DNA from: Escherichia coli
Lineage (GTDB): Bacteria; Pseudomonadota; Gammaproteobacteria; Enterobacterales; Enterobacteriaceae
Length of the DNA stretch: 64,000 nucleotides
Reading direction: 5' to 3' (one strand)
NCBI RefSeq assembly: GCF_003018115.1
Contig: NZ_CP027457.1
In this document: piece by piece, positions 3,576 through 26,990 of the stretch
Layout of the letters: the number at the start of each line of letters is the position of its first letter
How positions within the stretch are numbered: the first letter of the stretch is position 1
Notes under the pieces: model-generated
The model's database searches: none
What the model was told of the DNA's origin: nothing
Seen by the model: only the letters and a program-made list of their open reading frames with translations
Position numbers and translations under genes: made by a program

Positions 3576-4853
3576 ATGAAAACCAAAGTTGCTGCTATTT
3601 ATGGCAAGCGGGATGTCCGTCTGCGCGAATTTGAACTACCAGAAATTACCGATAATGAATTACTGGTGAGTGTGATTTCTGACAGCGTCTGTTTATCCAC
3701 CTGGAAAGCGGCGTTACTCGGTAGTGAACATAAACGCGTACCCGACGATTTAGAAAATCATCCGGTCATTACCGGGCATGAATGTGCCGGGGTTATTGTC
3801 GAAGTGGGTAAAAATCTCACTGGCAAATATAAAAAAGGCCAGCGTTTTGTATTGCAACCGGCGATGGGATTACCAAGCGGATATTCAGCGGGCTACAGCT
3901 ACGAATATTTTGGCGGCAATGCCACTTATATGATTATTCCCGAAATCGCCATTAATTTGGGCTGCGTATTACCGTATCACGGCTCTTATTTTGCTGCGGC
4001 GTCGCTGGCAGAGCCTATGTGCTGCATTATTGGTGCTTATCATGCCAATTATCACACCACGCAATATGTTTATGAGCATCGCATGGGCGTCAAACCTGGC
4101 GGCAATATTGCGCTACTGGCGTGTGCAGGTCCGATGGGCATTGGCGCTATAGATTACGCCATTAACGGCGGCATACAACCGTCGCGGGTGGTGGTGGTCG
4201 ATATCGACGACACACGTCTGGCGCAGGTACAGAAGCTGCTGCCGGTGGAACTGGCGGCCAGTAAAGGCATTGAGCTGGTGTATGTGAATACCAAAGGGAT
4301 GAGCGATCCTGTCCAGATGCTGCGGGCGCTGACAGGAGATGCCGGGTTCGATGACATTTTTGTTTATGCGGCGGTGCCTGCTGTCGTTGAGATGGCTGAT
4401 GAATTACTGGCGGAAGATGGCTGTCTGAACTTCTTTGCCGGGCCGACGGATAAAAACTTCAAAGTGCCGTTTAATTTCTACAACGTTCATTACAACAGCA
4501 CGCACGTCGTCGGTACATCCGGCGGTTCAACGGACGACATGAAAGAGGCGATTGCCCTTAGCGCCACTGGGCAGTTACAGCCGTCGTTTATGGTGACCCA
4601 TATCGGTGGCCTGGATGCGGTGCCAGAAACCGTGCTCAATCTGCCGGATATCCCTGGCGGTAAAAAACTCATTTATAACGGCGTGACCATGCCGCTCACT
4701 GCCATTGCCGATTTTGCCGAAAAAGGCAAAACCGATCCGCTGTTTAAAGAGTTGGCGCGGCTGGTTGAGAAAACGCACGGCATCTGGAATGAACAGGCCG
4801 AGAAATATCTGCTGGCACAATTTGGCGTTGATATCGGGGAGGCCGCGCAATGA
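3576..4853 (+). CDS. yggP: putative zinc-binding medium-chain dehydrogenase (425 aa)
   Basis: GHECAGVIVEVG zinc-ADH-like motif and a Rossmann-like GPMGIGAID stretch; position between cmtA and yggF. Confidence 0.75.
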   Translation: MKTKVAAIYGKRDVRLREFELPEITDNELLVSVISDSVCLSTWKAALLGSEHKRVPDDLENHPVITGHECAGVIVEVGKNLTGKYKKGQRFVLQPAMGLPSGYSAGYSYEYFGGNATYMIIPEIAINLGCVLPYHGSYFAAASLAEPMCCIIGAYHANYHTTQYVYEHRMGVKPGGNIALLACAGPMGIGAIDYAINGGIQPSRVVVVDIDDTRLAQVQKLLPVELAASKGIELVYVNTKGMSDPVQMLRALTGDAGFDDIFVYAAVPAVVEMADELLAEDGCLNFFAGPTDKNFKVPFNFYNVHYNSTHVVGTSGGSTDDMKEAIALSATGQLQPSFMVTHIGGLDAVPETVLNLPDIPGGKKLIYNGVTMPLTAIADFAEKGKTDPLFKELARLVEKTHGIWNEQAEKYLLAQFGVDIGEAAQ

Positions 4854-5815
4854 TGTCCCTGGCGTGGCCATTATTTCGCGTTACGGAACAGGCAGCGTTG
4901 GCTGCCTGGCCGCAAACCGGATGTGGCGACAAAAATAAAATTGATGGCCTGGCGGTCACCGCGATGCGCCAGGCATTAAACGAAGTCGCTTTTCGTGGAC
5001 GAGTGGTTATCGGCGAAGGAGAAATTGACCATGCGCCGATGCTGTGGATTGGAGAAGAGGTGGGCAAAGGCGATGGGCCAGAAGTCGATATCGCGGTTGA
5101 TCCCATTGAAGGCACGCGGATGGTGGCGATGGGGCAGAGCAATGCGCTGGCGGTCATGGCTTTCGCCCCTCGAGATAGCCTGTTACATGCGCCCGATATG
5201 TATATGAAAAAGCTGGTTGTTAATCGACTGGCTGCCGGGGCGATTGATCTGTCTTTGCCTCTGGCGGACAACTTGCGTAACGTGGCGCGGGCGTTAGGTA
5301 AACCGCTGGACAAGCTGCGCATGGTTACGCTGGATAAACCGCGTCTGAGTGCCGCGATTGAAGAAGCAACACAGCTGGGCGTGAAGGTTTTTGCCCTGCC
5401 GGATGGCGATGTCGCCGCCAGCGTGCTGACCTGCTGGCAGGATAATCCTTACGATGTGATGTACACCATCGGCGGTGCGCCGGAAGGCGTGATTTCTGCC
5501 TGTGCCGTTAAAGCATTAGGCGGGGATATGCAGGCCGAGCTGATTGACTTTTGTCAGGCTAAAGGGGATTACACGGAAAATCGGCAGATTGCAGAGCAGG
5601 AGCGCAAGCGTTGCAAGGCAATGGGCGTTGACGTTAACCGTGTGTACTCGCTCGATGAACTGGTGAGGGGGAACGATATCCTCTTTAGCGCTACGGGCGT
5701 GACGGGCGGTGAGCTGGTGAACGGTATCCAACAGACGGCGAATGGGGTGCGGACGCAGACATTACTGATCGGCGGCGCGGACCAAACGTGTAATATAATA
5801 GACTCCCTGCATTGA
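4850..5815 (+). CDS. yggF: class II fructose-1,6-bisphosphatase paralogue, GlpX-like (321 aa)
   Basis: Start overlaps yggP stop as ATGA; sequence resembles GlpX-family FBPase; length matches YggF. Confidence 0.8.
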   Translation: MMSLAWPLFRVTEQAALAAWPQTGCGDKNKIDGLAVTAMRQALNEVAFRGRVVIGEGEIDHAPMLWIGEEVGKGDGPEVDIAVDPIEGTRMVAMGQSNALAVMAFAPRDSLLHAPDMYMKKLVVNRLAAGAIDLSLPLADNLRNVARALGKPLDKLRMVTLDKPRLSAAIEEATQLGVKVFALPDGDVAASVLTCWQDNPYDVMYTIGGAPEGVISACAVKALGGDMQAELIDFCQAKGDYTENRQIAEQERKRCKAMGVDVNRVYSLDELVRGNDILFSATGVTGGELVNGIQQTANGVRTQTLLIGGADQTCNIIDSLH

Positions 5816-5836
5816 TGGTGATCTATCGGAAGACCA

Positions 5837-6346
5837 ATGGCGACGCTGACAGAAGATGATGTGCTTGAGCAACTGGATGCACAGGACAATTTATTTTCAT
5901 TTATGAAAACGGCGCATTCTATTTTGCTCCAGGGGATACGCCAGTTTCTACCGTCGCTGTTTGTCGATAACGATGAAGAGATCGTCGAATATGCAGTGAA
6001 GCCGTTACTCGCCCAAAGCGGCCCGCTTGACGATATTGATGTTGCGCTGCGTTTGATTTATGCGCTGGGGAAAATGGATAAATGGCTGTACGCCGATATC
6101 ACGCACTTTTCCCAGTTCTGGCATTACCTGAACGAACAGGATGAAATGCCCGGATTTGCCGATGACATGACCTGGGATTTTATCAGCAACGTCAATAGCA
6201 TAACCCGCAATGCGACGCTCTATGACGCGTTGAAAGCGATGAAGTTCGCCGATTTCGCCGTCTGGTCAGAGGCGCGTTTTAGCGGGATGGTCAAAACGGC
6301 GCTGACGCTGGCAGTAACGACAACCTTAAAGGAATTAACGCCGTGA
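5837..6346 (+). CDS. yggD: MtlR-like small regulatory protein (169 aa)
   Basis: ATG at 5837; 169 aa; position and size match YggD. Confidence 0.75.
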   Translation: MATLTEDDVLEQLDAQDNLFSFMKTAHSILLQGIRQFLPSLFVDNDEEIVEYAVKPLLAQSGPLDDIDVALRLIYALGKMDKWLYADITHFSQFWHYLNEQDEMPGFADDMTWDFISNVNSITRNATLYDALKAMKFADFAVWSEARFSGMVKTALTLAVTTTLKELTP

Positions 6347-7056
6347 AAATTGAATTAACGGTGAATGGTCTGAAGGTACAGGCACAGTACCATGATGATG
6401 AGATAGAAAATGTACATAAACCGTTGCTGCGCATGTTGGCGGCCTTACAGACGGTAAATCCGCAGCGGCGTACGGTAGTTTTTCTTTGCGCTCCGCCGGG
6501 GACGGGGAAATCTACCCTAACCACCTTCTGGGAATATCTCGCACAACAAGACCCGGAACTACCCGCTATTCAGACGCTCCCGATGGATGGTTTTCACCAT
6601 TACAATAGCTGGCTGGATGCGCATCAATTGCGCCCCTTCAAAGGCGCACCAGAGACATTTGACGTTGCGAAACTGGCGGAAAATCTGCGCCAGGTAATGG
6701 AAGGGGATTGTACGTGGCCACAGTACGATCGACAAAAGCATGATCCTGTTGAAGATGCGTTGCACGTTACCGCACCACTCGTCATCGTCGAAGGAAACTG
6801 GTTGTTGCTGGACGACGAGAAGTGGTGCCAGCTTGCGCAATTTTGTGATTTCTCGATCTTTATCAACGCGCCAGCTACTGCGTTGCGGGAACGACTGGTG
6901 GGGCGCAAGCTGGCGGGAGGGTTATCGCTGGCAGACGCAGAAGCCTTTTATGACCGTACCGATGGGCCGAATGTTCGCCGGGTGCTGGAAGAGAGTCTGC
7001 CTGCACATTTGACCTTAATAATGACCGCTACGGGTGAATATCGTCTGGTGGATTAA
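6343..7056 (+). CDS. yggC: P-loop nucleoside/pantothenate-kinase-like protein (237 aa)
   Basis: GTG start overlapping yggD stop as GTGA; Walker A motif APPGTGKST; 3-prime end overlaps the convergent ATPase gene. Confidence 0.8.
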   Translation: MKIELTVNGLKVQAQYHDDEIENVHKPLLRMLAALQTVNPQRRTVVFLCAPPGTGKSTLTTFWEYLAQQDPELPAIQTLPMDGFHHYNSWLDAHQLRPFKGAPETFDVAKLAENLRQVMEGDCTWPQYDRQKHDPVEDALHVTAPLVIVEGNWLLLDDEKWCQLAQFCDFSIFINAPATALRERLVGRKLAGGLSLADAEAFYDRTDGPNVRRVLEESLPAHLTLIMTATGEYRLVD

Positions 7057-21181: not shown

Positions 21182-23318
21182 GATGCTGGCTTATCAGATT
21201 CAGTACGTCGCGCACACTGTCGAGCATAGGTGTACCTGGACCATAAATCGCCGCCACGCCGCGCTCTTGCAGGAAGGCGTAATCCTGCGGTGGAATGACG
21301 CCACCGGCGACTACGCAGATATCTTCGCGTCCCCATTTTTTCAGCGCTTCGACCAGTTCCGGGATCAGCGTTTTATGACCGGCAGCCAGTGAGGATGCGC
21401 CCACTACGTGAACGTCATTTTCTACTGCCAGGCGGGCGATCTCTTCAGGTGTAGAGAACATCGGGCTTAAATCTACGTCGAAACCGAGATCGGAATAGGC
21501 GCTGGCGATCACTTTCGCGCCGCGATCGTGCCCATCCTGGCCCATTTTGGCGATCAGAATGCGCGGGCGACGACCATTGTCGGCAAGGAACTGCTCCGTT
21601 TGCGCAACAATGGCATCGAACTCCGAGGCCGATTTCTCAGATTGATGATAGCTTTGCGCAATCACGCCGGTAACACACTGGCTTGGCACCAGATAACGGT
21701 CGAAAGCGGCTTCCAGCGCATCGGAAATTTCACCCAGGGTGGCGCGAACGCGAGCGGCATTAACAGCGGCAGCCAGCAGGTTTTCGTTATGCTGTGCGGC
21801 GTGAGTCAGGGCGTTCAACGCGGCGGTTACGGCGGCATCATCACGGGTGGCGCGAATGCGTTCCAGCGAAGCAATTTGCTCGTTACGCACCATCACGTTG
21901 TCGATCTCAAGTACATCGGTTTCGTCTTCGTGATCCAGTTTGTACTTGTTGACACCAACGATGACACGCTTGCCCTGGTCGATCAGCGACTGTTCGCGCG
22001 CTGAGGCCTCTTCGATCATTCGTTTTGGCAGACCTGCTTCGATCGCTTTCGCCATGCCACCGGCTTCGTCGATCTGTTGGATAATAGCTCTGGCTTGTTT
22101 GACGATTTGATCGGTCAGCGACTCAATGTAATAGGATCCGGCCAGTGGATCGACGGTGCGGCAGAGTTCTGATTCTTCCTGGATGATGATCTGGGTGTTG
22201 CGGGCAATGCGTGCGGAGAAATCGGTAGGCAAACCAAGCGCTTCGTCAAAGGCGTTGGTATGCAGTGACTGAGTACCGCCCAGCGTCGCAGCCAGTGCTT
22301 CAATGGTGGTGCGGATAACGTTGTTATACGGATCCTGTTCAGTCAGGCTCCAGCCTGAGGTCTGGCAGTGGGTACGCAGCGCCAGTGATTTCGGGTCCTG
22401 TGCGCCAAATCCACTGACCGCTTCGCTCCATAAATAACGTGCCGCACGCAACATGGCGACGTTCATAAACAGATCCATGCCGATGCCGAAGAAGAACGAC
22501 AGGCGAGGAGCGAAGTCATCAATTTTCAGTCCGGCAGAGATTGCTGCTTTGATGTACTCAATCCCATCAGCGAGCGTAAATGCTACCTGCTGCACGCAGT
22601 TGGCACCCGCTTCACCCATGTGGTAACCGCTGATACTGATGGTATTAAATCGCGGCATGTTGCCGGAACACCAGGCGATGATGTCGGCGATAATGCGCAT
22701 TGACGGTTTTGGCGGGTAAATATAGGTGTTGCGGCAGAGGTACTCTTTGAGGATATCGTTCTGAATGGTGCCGGTCAGTTTATCAGGTGTAACACCTTGC
22801 TCTTCCGCGGCGACGATATAAAACGCCAGTACTGGTAGCACTGCGCCATTCATGGTCATCGAAACCGACATTTTATCCAGCGGGATCTGGTCGAACAGGA
22901 CTTTCATATCTTCCACGGTGTCGATAGCGACGCCCGCTTTGCCGACGTCGCCCGCCACGCGCGGGTTATCGGAGTCGTAGCCTCGGTGGGTGGCAAGGTC
23001 AAACGCAACGGAAAGACCTTTTTGCCCGGCGGCCAGGTTACGGCGATAAAAAGCGTTGGACTCTTTTGCTGTTGAAAAACCAGCATACTGACGGATGGTC
23101 CACGGTTGGGCGGTATACATAGTGGCACGCGGGCCACGAACGTAGGGCGGCAAACCAGGAAGGGTACCTGTCACCTCCAGATTATCGAGATCGGCTTCGG
23201 TATACAGCGGCTTGATGGCGATCCCTTCCGCGGTTTGCTGAACCAGCGAGTCGACAGTTTTCTCCCGACGGCTCAATTCCTTGTTGGCAAGCTGTTGCCA
23301 CTCCTGCACGTTAGACAT
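21174..23318 (-). CDS. scpA: methylmalonyl-CoA mutase, B12-dependent (714 aa)
   Basis: [26 protein letters not shown]-terminus; mutase catalytic and C-terminal B12-binding domains. Confidence 0.9.
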
Positions 23319-23487
23319 TATTTGCTCCGTAAAACGCAATCAAAATGAGGGTATTTGCGCCTACGGTGAGCTTTTTACGTGGGTTTGTCGCCAGCAAAAA
23401 AAATGCATTCAGACGTCGTTTTTTGCCGCCTGAGATTTGTCTATTTTGTGATGTGATTCAAGGAATACAAAAAGAAGTGAGGACAAC

Positions 23488-23508
23488 GCCTGATATGTGC
23501 TATCAGGC
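23488..23508 (-). terminator. hairpin downstream of argP
   Basis: gcctgata/tatcaggc 8-bp stem with U-rich tail on the minus strand. Confidence 0.45.
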
Positions 23509-23521
23509 ATTATTTGATGGA

Positions 23522-24415
23522 TTAATCCTGACGAAGGACTTTGTGACCATAATCGAGTAACGCATCAGTGACTTTACGCATCATGCGGCTTTCAGGAGCA
23601 AAGCGGTGCCAGTAGAGCATCCGTCGTTGAAATAGCCCAGGCGTTAAGTCAATCAGTTCACCGCTGGCCAGCTCTTTCTCGATTTGCAGGTGCGGGATCA
23701 TACAGCAGGTGGTGCCCTGGCGAGCAAGTTGTACGAACGCTTCTGAAGAATTAACGATATGGCAGGGCACGCTGCCTGGAGGCAGATCGAAGTTTTGCTG
23801 CAAAAAGGCCTGGTGCATATCGTCAAGATGGTCAAACGCGACCACTGGCGCTTTCAGTAATGCCGAACGCGTTACGCCGTTAGGGAAATATTTTTCGGCA
23901 AAGGGTTTTGAGCTGACGAACAGATAGTCGAGCGCACCAAGTTTATCGACAAGACAACTCGGCAGCGCCTGATGTTGAATACTCACCGCGCCGACCACTT
24001 CGCCGCGGCGCAGACGTTCCTGAGTGCGGGTTTCATCTTCTACCTGCAAGTTGAGGCGGATAGGCGAATCAGCCAACACAGGAGCCAGTGCAGGAAGCAA
24101 CCACGTCGCCAGACTGTCGGCGTTGACCGCCAGTGAAAGCAGCAGCGGAGTCGAACCGGTTTGTTCATCGCCCAGCCACTCTTCTTCCAGCAACTCCACC
24201 TGGCGCAGCAGTGCCAGCAGTTTTTGACCTTGTTCCGTTGGGCGCGGCGGTACGGTACGCACTAACAGCGGCTGCCCGAACATATTTTCCAGTTGCTTAA
24301 TGCGCTGTGAGACGGCTGATTGTGTAATGCACAGCTTTTGTGCCGCGCGCTCAAATCCTCGTTCACGTATCACCGCATCCAGTGCCTGTAATGTTCTGTA
24401 GTCCGGGCGTTTCAT
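23522..24415 (-). CDS. argP: LysR-family regulator ArgP/IciA (297 aa)
   Basis: [44 protein letters not shown]-terminus. Confidence 0.9.
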
Positions 24416-24556
24416 TGCTGTTGTCTGCTCCTGGTAAATGCTTTTTCCTGCACTATGACACAATTTTGTGTCAGGTTGCATATACCGAAGCCGTCGGCGG
24501 GTAACATTTGTATTCGTGGTTAAACGCGCAGCTTAAAAGATCAGGGATTTGCGCTA

Positions 24557-24787
24557 ATGCATTTCGCTCAGCGAGTTCGCGCCCTGGTTGTGTTGAATGG
24601 CGTGGCGTTATTGCCTCAATTTGCCTGTAAACAGGGGCTTGCGAACGGTGAACTGGTGCGCCTGTTTGCACCGTGGAGCGGCATACCCAGATTGTTGCAT
24701 GCCTTATTTGCGGGGCGAAAGGGGATGCCTGCCATTGCGCGATATTTTATGGATGAGTTAACCACGCGGCTTGCCAACGGGGTCTGA
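24557..24787 (+). pseudogene. yqfE: C-terminal fragment of a LysR-family regulator
   Basis: 76-aa ORF resembling only the extreme C-terminus of a LysR substrate-binding domain, with no HTH; lies between argP and rpiA. Confidence 0.55.
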
Positions 24788-24842
24788 ATCGCTTTTTTTG
24801 TATATAATGCGTGTGAAATTTCATACCACAGGCGAAACGATC

Positions 24843-25502
24843 ATGACGCAGGATGAATTGAAAAAAGCAGTAGGATGGGCGGCACTTCAGTATGTTCAGC
24901 CCGGCACCATTGTTGGTGTAGGTACAGGTTCCACCGCCGCACACTTTATTGACGCGCTCGGTACAATGAAAGGCCAGATTGAAGGGGCCGTTTCCAGTTC
25001 AGATGCTTCCACTGAAAAACTGAAAAGCCTCGGCATTCACGTTTTTGATCTCAACGAAGTCGACAGCCTTGGCATCTACGTTGATGGCGCAGATGAAATC
25101 AACGGCCACATGCAAATGATCAAAGGCGGCGGCGCGGCGCTGACCCGTGAAAAAATCATTGCTTCGGTTGCGGAAAAATTTATCTGCATTGCAGACGCTT
25201 CCAAGCAGGTTGATATTCTGGGTAAATTCCCGCTGCCAGTAGAAGTTATCCCGATGGCACGTAGTGCAGTGGCGCGCCAACTGGTGAAACTGGGCGGTCG
25301 TCCGGAATACCGTCAGGGCGTGGTGACCGATAATGGCAACGTGATCCTCGACGTCCACGGCATGGAAATCCTTGACCCGATAGCGATGGAAAACGCCATA
25401 AATGCGATTCCTGGCGTGGTGACTGTTGGCTTGTTTGCTAACCGTGGCGCGGACGTTGCGCTGATTGGCACACCTGACGGTGTCAAAACCATTGTGAAAT
25501 GA
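24843..25502 (+). CDS. rpiA: ribose-5-phosphate isomerase A (219 aa)
   Basis: [32 protein letters not shown]-terminus; ATG at 24843. Confidence 0.95.
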
Positions 25503-25505
25503 TCT

Positions 25506-25525
25506 GACGGGGGAACCTCCCCCGT
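25506..25525 (+). terminator. hairpin immediately after rpiA
   Basis: acggggg/cccccgt stem; followed by an A-run then a T-rich stretch. Confidence 0.4.
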
Positions 25526-25757
25526 TAAAAAAATTCTCTTCATTAAATTTGGTGACATGTGTCACGCTTTTACCAGGCAATTGTCGATTGCTCTAAATAA
25601 ATCCTCTAAACCAGCATATTCATCCAAGAATTACCTTTGCGTGATATTTCCTCAACATCGCGACGCAAACGTTCATATTGCCGCAATATTATTTTTTGAT
25701 ATGTTGAAAGGCGGATGCAAATCCGCACACAACATTTCAAAAGACAGGATTGGGTAA

Positions 25758-26990
25758 ATGGCAAAGGTATCGCTGGAGAAAGACAAGATTAAGTTTCTGC
25801 TGGTAGAAGGCGTGCACCAAAAGGCGCTGGAAAGCCTTCGTGCAGCTGGTTACACCAACATCGAATTTCACAAAGGCGCGCTGGATGATGAACAATTAAA
25901 AGAATCCATCCGCGATGCCCACTTCATCGGCCTGCGATCCCGTACCCATCTGACTGAAGACGTGATCAACGCCGCAGAAAAACTGGTCGCTATTGGCTGT
26001 TTCTGTATCGGAACAAACCAGGTTGATCTGGATGCGGCGGCAAAGCGCGGGATCCCGGTATTTAACGCACCGTTCTCAAATACGCGCTCTGTTGCGGAGC
26101 TGGTGATTGGCGAACTGCTGCTGCTATTGCGCGGCGTGCCGGAAGCCAATGCTAAAGCGCACCGTGGCGTGTGGAACAAACTGGCGGCGGGGTCTTTTGA
26201 AGCGCGCGGCAAAAAGCTGGGTATCATCGGCTACGGTCATATTGGTACGCAATTGGGCATTCTGGCTGAATCGCTGGGAATGTATGTTTACTTTTATGAT
26301 ATTGAAAACAAACTGCCGCTAGGCAACGCCACTCAGGTACAGCATCTTTCTGACCTGCTGAATATGAGCGATGTGGTGAGTCTGCATGTACCAGAGAATC
26401 CGTCCACCAAAAATATGATGGGCGCGAAAGAAATTTCACTAATGAAGCCCGGCTCGCTGCTGATTAATGCTTCGCGCGGTACTGTGGTGGATATTCCGGC
26501 GCTGTGTGATGCGCTGGCGAGCAAACATCTGGCGGGGGCGGCAATCGACGTATTCCCGACGGAACCGGCGACCAATAGCGATCCATTTACCTCTCCGCTG
26601 TGTGAATTCGACAACGTCCTTCTGACGCCACACATTGGCGGTTCGACTCAGGAAGCGCAGGAGAATATTGGCCTGGAAGTTGCGGGTAAATTGATCAAGT
26701 ATTCTGACAATGGCTCAACGCTCTCTGCGGTGAACTTCCCGGAAGTCTCGCTGCCACTGCACGGTGGGCGTCGTCTGATGCACATCCACGAAAACCGTCC
26801 GGGCGTGCTAACTGCGCTGAACAAAATCTTCGCCGAGCAGGGCGTCAACATCGCCGCGCAATATCTACAAACTTCCGCCCAGATGGGTTATGTGGTTATT
26901 GATATTGAAGCCGACGAAGACGTTGCCGAAAAAGCGCTGCAGGCAATGAAAGCTATTCCGGGTACCATTCGCGCCCGTCTGCTGTACTAA
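25758..26990 (+). CDS. serA: D-3-phosphoglycerate dehydrogenase (410 aa)
   Basis: MAKVSLEKDKIKFLLVEGVHQKALESLRAAGY N-terminus; NAD-binding GYGHIGTQ; C-terminal ACT domain. Confidence 0.95.
   Translation: MAKVSLEKDKIKFLLVEGVHQKALESLRAAGYTNIEFHKGALDDEQLKESIRDAHFIGLRSRTHLTEDVINAAEKLVAIGCFCIGTNQVDLDAAAKRGIPVFNAPFSNTRSVAELVIGELLLLLRGVPEANAKAHRGVWNKLAAGSFEARGKKLGIIGYGHIGTQLGILAESLGMYVYFYDIENKLPLGNATQVQHLSDLLNMSDVVSLHVPENPSTKNMMGAKEISLMKPGSLLINASRGTVVDIPALCDALASKHLAGAAIDVFPTEPATNSDPFTSPLCEFDNVLLTPHIGGSTQEAQENIGLEVAGKLIKYSDNGSTLSAVNFPEVSLPLHGGRRLMHIHENRPGVLTALNKIFAEQGVNIAAQYLQTSAQMGYVVIDIEADEDVAEKALQAMKAIPGTIRARLLY

Follow-up and report, generated by a model that had tools for sequence, protein, structure and literature searches.

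What is the small open reading frame (ORF) that lies between argP and rpiA in Escherichia coli: a protein in its own right, a derivative of the neighbouring regulator gene argP, or what is left of another regulator? The question is posed here for a stretch of 64,000 nucleotides of E. coli DNA (the window), in which the list of ORFs contains a plus-strand frame of 76 codons plus stop at 24557-24787, starting with an ATG at 24557, ending with a TGA at 24785-24787, and preceded by a weak Shine-Dalgarno-like AGGGA 9 nt 5' of the start codon. Its neighbours are argP on the minus strand (23522-24415) and rpiA on the plus strand (24843-25502); scpA and serA lie farther out. A preliminary description of the window, made from the sequence alone, had called it "yqfE-like" and had taken it for the remnant of a regulator deleted or rearranged next to argP.

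Both the location and the name given there were well chosen. The counterpart in K-12 MG1655 (NC_000913.3, 3,059,381-3,059,611) is yqfE (b2915), listed as a pseudogene in RefSeq; the two ORFs have the same length of 231 nt, occupy the same gap between argP and rpiA on the strand of rpiA, and are near-identical. The surrounding 451-nt region (24400-24850) is 100% identical to that of E. coli F9792 and 98.7% identical to that of a K-12 MG1655 assembly; it is matched in 5,425 of the 5,426 complete E. coli genomes, with at least 80% of its length covered in 5,157 of them. One E. coli genome record labelled as a plasmid also bears argP-yqfE-rpiA; mislabelling of the replicon or a misassembly is the probable reason. 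Upstream of argP, scpA (methylmalonyl-CoA mutase) is a pseudogene with an internal stop in O104:H4 (L003 1-119), a sign of decay in the neighbourhood.

Resemblance to LysR regulators

yqfE resembles the LysR regulators, and of these only the very end. In Pfam, residues 15-72 correspond to positions 151-208 of the 209 positions of LysR_substrate (PF03466; E 1.4e-5), with a score of 25 bits that falls just below the gathering score of 28, and the NCBIfam LysR models are likewise matched over their last ~60 positions only. The relationship is one of descent, since residues 14-76 are identical at 60 of 63 positions to residues 236-298 of the intact LysR protein of 298 aa that other E. coli strains encode at this locus (BLASTP, E 1e-42). 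When this full-length protein was compared with the whole 64-kb window by tblastn, residues 236-298 alone were recovered, at 24596-24784, and residues 1-235 had no match anywhere in the window. No match to HTH_1 (PF00126) was found in the ORF, and no helix-turn-helix (HTH) domain upstream of it or elsewhere in the window. Thus, the claim that the frame resembles the tail of a LysR substrate-binding domain and has no HTH was confirmed: neither the N-terminal winged HTH domain nor a complete two-lobed effector-binding domain of ~209 positions is present. With no DNA-binding domain and only about a quarter of the effector-binding domain left, yqfE cannot act as a regulator.

Larger searches led to the same end of the family. 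When 1.84 billion representative proteins were searched exhaustively with HMMER, the hits were short fragments together with LysR proteins of ~300 aa that align by their C-terminal ~60-70 residues, the best of the latter (P0069) being 54% identical over its residues 229-296. A word-indexed search of 5.8 billion proteins with the 76-aa ORF returned short fragments only, 43 to 110 aa in length, all labelled E. coli, Shigella or Escherichia with the exception of one partial fragment that bears the label Enterobacter cloacae complex.

The window's allele has a peculiarity that affects how it is annotated. It carries four substitutions (24692, 24693, 24698 and 24703), leading to P46L and Y48H, at a place where the intact alleles do not vary, and these two changes lower the Pfam score from 29.4 bits in K-12 to 25 bits, under the cut-off, so that PGAP calls the product a "hypothetical protein" in the source strain. 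In K-12-like and CFT073-like strains the label is "LysR substrate-binding domain-containing protein", and no gene is called at this position in O157:H7 or O104:H4. A reconstruction of the locus is of use for annotation in this respect, as the same scar is named in three ways (LysR substrate-binding, hypothetical, nothing) by strain. The four substitutions lie within 12 bp (24692-24703), reading AGATTGTTGCATGCC where all other alleles examined have AGACCGTTGTATGCT, which suggests one multi-nucleotide event, not independent mutations.

The intact locus in other genomes

The full-length gene is found in the same slot in a minority of the species. A long argP-rpiA haplotype occurs in 241 of the 5,426 complete E. 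coli genomes (about 4%), with an interval of ~3,416 bp in strains PapRG-06-5, PE164 and Res13-Sevr-PER07-33, versus 427 bp in the short form. Three of its genes lie on the strand of argP and encode a protein of 441 aa with ferric-reductase transmembrane, FAD and NAD domains (NOX-like), a DUF1471 protein of 86 aa (BhsA/YhcN-like) and an FMN-dependent NADH-azoreductase-like protein of 209 aa. The fourth, divergent gene encodes the LysR regulator of 298 aa (WP_000568126.1 in PapRG-06-5), with HTH_1 at residues 4-63 and LysR_substrate at residues 88-294, and ends 55 bp before rpiA. In PapRG-06-5 this four-gene module spans positions 3602-6892 of the extracted locus (L006), and related loci were collected as L007, L008, L013 (Salmonella) and L015 (Citrobacter); the module is absent from the window.

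The comparison with relatives also returned a full LysR gene outside E. coli. In the relatives compared, for which the scan of contigs returned only four loci, the argP-rpiA slot holds the same LysR gene in E. whittamii, Escherichia sp. E1V33 and Escherichia sp. MOD1-EC7003 (frameshifted in the last), in a Pseudocitrobacter metagenome-assembled genome (73% identity) and in Citrobacter portucalensis (68% identity), where it is accompanied by the azoreductase gene only. In some Salmonella enterica, the whole four-gene block is present at a different locus. The idea that a gene had been lost from this site, and that relatives might still retain it, is therefore correct.

These genomes also bear on whether the stub could have come from argP, itself a LysR regulator, through a rearrangement or duplication that gave rise to the short haplotype. 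Even though the two lie side by side, the tail of yqfE matches at 95% identity a separate LysR gene that other strains have at this site, and among the NCBIfam models that gene fits PRK14997/YafC/AaeR best (E 1e-49 to 1e-37), with ArgP at E 1.6e-14. Besides, argP is intact and 100% identical between the short and long haplotypes. An origin from argP is refuted by this evidence, and we give it practically no credence. Of the preliminary description, then, the deletion stands, with its junction now mapped, and the proximity to argP is a coincidence, the lost regulator being PRK14997/YafC/AaeR-like (E 1e-49).

Among solved structures, the closest relative of the intact LysR protein is PDB 3SZP/3T1B (E 3e-36, residues 5-288 aligned), which we take to be AphB of Vibrio cholerae. 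The module, with its AphB-like regulator and its DUF1471 protein (BhsA/YhcN/RclB-like), is as yet uncharacterised; its intact state in about 4% of the complete E. coli genomes, together with its different locus in some Salmonella, suggests that it may be an accessory redox or oxidant-stress cassette.

Judging from their gene structures, the long haplotypes are also decaying. The ferric-reductase gene is split in Res13, has an internal deletion in E. whittamii and is fragmented in E1V33, and in MOD1-EC7003 its 3' part alone survives beside a truncated DUF1471 gene, in addition to the frameshift in the LysR gene. The first clue to the long haplotype had been a 92-aa homologue (P0019) from an error-rich E. 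coli assembly. In that assembly (L005; GCA_046507405.1, JBKFET010000002.1) the rpiA, serA, azoreductase and LysR genes are all fragmented by frameshifts; since it is full of them, the 92-aa "LysR substrate-binding" protein is an assembly artefact of a long-haplotype locus.

Anatomy of the deletion scar

With an intact locus at hand, the loss can be mapped. Comparison of window positions 24350-24900 with the long haplotype of PapRG-06-5 (L006) by blastn yields three collinear blocks. The first (24350-24471, L006 3466-3587, 98%) comprises the 5' end of argP plus 56 bp upstream. The second (24537-24594, L006 5296-5353, 88%, or 96% to L010) lies within the 3' end of the minus-strand azoreductase gene, and the third (24595-24900, L006 6700-7005, 98%) runs from the final 193 nt of the LysR gene through the spacer into rpiA. 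The LysR remnant thus extends over 24595-24787 (plus strand) and consists of the last 63 codons and the stop (residues 236-298 of 298). It abuts a remnant of the azoreductase-like gene at 24510-24594 (minus strand), recognised by blastn and by translation, which keeps the ~28 last codons and has lost the stop codon; the minus-strand translation of 24516-24593 is identical to azoreductase residues 182-207 of 209 at 20 of 26 positions (E 9e-13).

Between the second and third blocks, 1,346 bp of the long haplotype are missing (L006 5354-6699). This deletion took the 5' part of the azoreductase gene together with 704 nt from the start of the LysR gene (~235 codons) and the divergent promoter region that separated them. 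Its junction is located at 24584-24596, where similar sequence of TTGG type on both sides leaves the breakpoint ambiguous within ~10 nt in the alignment of the short and long haplotypes. Collinear flanks with a mappable junction, and an intact orthologue in the same slot of relatives, are what a pseudogene produced by deletion should present. The opposite polarity, with the long haplotype as a secondary insertion, seems unlikely, as the short form contains fragments of two genes.

The frame of yqfE runs across this junction and is therefore chimeric. Its ATG at 24557 and codons 1-13 are the antisense strand of the azoreductase tail, and this ATG exists already as antisense sequence in the intact azoreductase gene, opposite the codons for ...NALAQ.... 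The 13 codons foreign to LysR agree with a Pfam alignment that begins only at residue 15, and they refine the preliminary description, in which the whole ORF had been likened to a LysR fragment. On the opposite strand, a 66-codon ORF (24471-24671, minus) is the mirror artefact of yqfE, composed of the antisense LysR tail and the C-terminal remnant of the azoreductase, its stop lost; it has no Pfam match.

To the left of the azoreductase remnant, a segment of 38 bp (24472-24509) occupies the place where the long E. coli haplotype has ~1.7 kb with the ferric-reductase-like and DUF1471 genes. These 38 bp have no blastn match, and their local alignments with six long loci and with the Citrobacter spacer are no better than those of shuffled sequences. 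Two candidate origins for the 38-65 bp that separate the azoreductase remnant from the argP flank, a diverged piece of the cassette and a spacer of the Citrobacter argP-azoreductase type, were rejected on the same grounds, as their scores did not exceed those of shuffles. The short haplotype may have arisen from the four-gene form by a second deletion of ~1.7 kb, or from a two-gene form like that of Citrobacter.

The argP-proximal left flank of the scar (24416-24471) is common to the short and long haplotypes (blastn, 98%). A perfect 8-bp inverted repeat, TGACACAA-TT-TTGTGTCA, is situated at 24456-24473, on the upstream side of argP and 41-58 bp from its start codon. The right arm sits where the homology with the long haplotype ends, and the repeat is conserved neither in the long E. 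coli haplotype nor in Citrobacter. The repeat may be an operator-like site made or altered by the rearrangement, or may be due to chance.

Decay of the frame across E. coli

If yqfE encoded a useful product, its frame should be maintained, and this was followed by searching the 5,426 complete E. coli genomes with 70-nt queries diagnostic of each junction. A deletion of 45 bp (15 codons) between two GCCT motifs within the ORF is present in 1,599 of them. At least 419 genomes, those of O157:H7 and O104:H4 among them, are identical to the O157:H7 form, in which the ATG has become TTG and codon 5 has changed from CAG to TAG, and 20 have the E09 form, with frameshifting deletions of 89 and 24 bp. 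Roughly two thirds of the complete genomes have the open 76-codon frame, a figure derived arithmetically from these counts and not from a direct count. The frame is thus not maintained: disruptive alleles segregate within the species, as is to be expected when no purifying selection acts on a frame.

Substitutions in the LysR tail are sparse. By the Nei-Gojobori method, K-12 differs from the intact E. coli alleles by one change and CFT073 by five, too few for a test. Of the CFT073 changes, four are synonymous and one is non-synonymous, and since four of the five are also found in the intact gene of E. whittamii, these variants probably predate the deletion or came by recombination.

This is the point at which to weigh whether yqfE is a functional chimeric micro-protein of 76 aa, which might bind full-length LysR proteins through the C-terminal oligomerisation surfaces and modulate them. 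In favour of it, most E. coli genomes have the frame open and many of these carry a CDS called there by PGAP, the AGGGA motif could serve as a weak ribosome-binding signal, and the nearly unchanged tails of K-12 and CFT073, with mostly synonymous changes, could by themselves suggest constraint. However, both N-terminus and start codon come by accident from the antisense strand of a gene remnant; at least 419 genomes no longer have the start and carry a stop at codon 5, 1,599 lack 15 codons, and 20 have deletions that shift the frame. In addition, short homologues of 43 to 110 aa are nearly all from E. coli, Shigella or Escherichia. The 63 LysR residues amount to the last ~58 positions of a two-lobed domain of ~209 positions, as seen from both Pfam and the alignment with 3T1B, and from the known fold of LysR effector domains we infer that such a tail would not be an independent folding unit. 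A functional micro-protein is accordingly very improbable, and the narrower proposal that a translated chimera of 13 antisense-derived and 63 LysR residues would interfere with the oligomerisation of full-length LysR proteins deserves scarcely any weight; were it true, it would represent a gene remnant en route to a new function. The preliminary description had named an intact, conserved small protein with its own start as the finding that would speak against a remnant, and the antisense-derived ATG, lost in at least 419 genomes, does not answer to it.

The spacer and the rpiA promoter

Between the LysR stop codon and rpiA, the right flank of the scar is a spacer (24788-24842, plus strand) that contains a TATAAT at 24803-24808. 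Its block TTTTTGTATATAAT...TTCAyACCACrGGCGAAA hardly differs between E. coli, E. whittamii, Citrobacter and Pseudocitrobacter, whereas the adjoining 3' end of the LysR gene varies. The spacer is presumably the promoter and 5' untranslated region of rpiA. A consensus scan of 24300-24900 for promoters and terminators called nothing, upstream of argP and rpiA included, and an Rfam scan of 23300-25800 returned no family.

An insertion of ~125 bp is found inside the TATAAT upstream of rpiA in two loci, those of E09 (L004 ~1608-1740) and MOD1-EC7003 (L012), at the equivalent of window position ~24806. It has a core (…CACCCCAGTCACTTACTTCTGTAAGCTCCTGGGGATTCAC…) that we take to be ERIC/IRU-like, and the sequence from the TATAAT to rpiA is re-created on its far side. 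The E09-type deletion junction associated with this insertion is common to 20 E. coli genomes.

Compatible with a pseudogene, and unlikely although worth retaining, is a role of the stub as cis-regulatory DNA, with the LysR 3' end providing the -35/UP part of the promoter of rpiA, and the left part serving argP as control DNA. This would account only for the persistence of the stub, as neighbouring promoters would limit deletions. It is consistent with the position of the LysR stop codon, only 16 bp upstream of the TATAAT at 24803-24808, with the conservation across genera of the sequence from there to rpiA, and with the fact that the deletions of 45, 89 and 24 bp all spare the last ~60 bp of the ORF. 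Nevertheless, the region equivalent to the -35 is not conserved among E. coli, Citrobacter and Pseudocitrobacter, the ERIC-like insertion at the TATA is tolerated in E09 and MOD1-EC7003, the simple promoter scan gave nothing, and the middle of the ORF is clearly dispensable.

A remnant of a lost LysR regulator

The reading that we favour, with a probability of about 0.92, is that yqfE is a non-functional gene remnant, a known pseudogene and the deletion scar of a LysR regulator. On this account, the ancestor would have had a complete LysR gene of 298 aa between argP and rpiA, divergent from an azoreductase-like gene that, in the long E. coli haplotype, is followed by the gene for a DUF1471 periplasmic stress protein and then by that for a ferric-reductase/NOX-like membrane flavoprotein. 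In the lineage of most E. coli, the 1,346-bp deletion, apparently between short similar sequences, took away three quarters of each divergent gene at the 5' end, along with the promoter region that the two shared, leaving the ~28 last azoreductase codons on the minus strand abutting the 63 last LysR codons on the plus strand. By accident, the antisense azoreductase tail supplies an ATG from which the frame runs into the LysR tail without meeting a stop, which is why gene finders call a 76-codon ORF. The stub may persist because too little time has passed, and because deletions reaching farther right would hit the rpiA promoter.

From the sequence data, no functional protein is likely to be made from yqfE. 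We also count for non-function that the viable reduced-genome strain DGF-298 has a 10.4-kb deletion containing yqfE (PMC10652928). In the literature on yqfE, b2915 and the rpiA promoter, nothing relevant was found beyond this deletion list naming yqfE.

As an already known and catalogued pseudogene of the best-annotated bacterial genome, yqfE makes for a finding that is real but ordinary. What is added here is the reconstruction of the loss, that of a LysR regulator and a divergent azoreductase-like/DUF1471/NOX-like redox module through a deletion of 1,346 bp, which turns the locus into a small textbook example of stepwise deletional decay.

Comparison with known systems

The closest known system is yqfE/b2915 of K-12 itself, which is alike in position between argP and rpiA, in its length of 231 nt and in its junction, and from which the window's ORF differs by the four clustered substitutions (P46L, Y48H). 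Next comes the intact 298-aa LysR regulator (WP_000568126.1, and its counterparts in E. whittamii, C. portucalensis and Pseudocitrobacter), whose residues 236-298 are 95% identical to residues 14-76 of yqfE and which is followed by the same spacer and rpiA; contrary to the window, which has none of these, it possesses HTH_1 at 4-63, the full LysR_substrate at 88-294 and a divergent azoreductase-like operon. The LysR protein of 3SZP/3T1B is a more distant relative within the family: its alignment to the intact ancestor includes the tail kept in yqfE, but what the window retains of such a protein, about one fifth, cannot bind DNA. Finally, ordinary enterobacterial deletion pseudogenes likewise have an intact orthologue in relatives, a sharp junction, nested deletions and sub-lineages that have lost the start codon, and the sole curiosity that sets yqfE apart from them is an apparent start codon taken from a second gene remnant, on its antisense strand.
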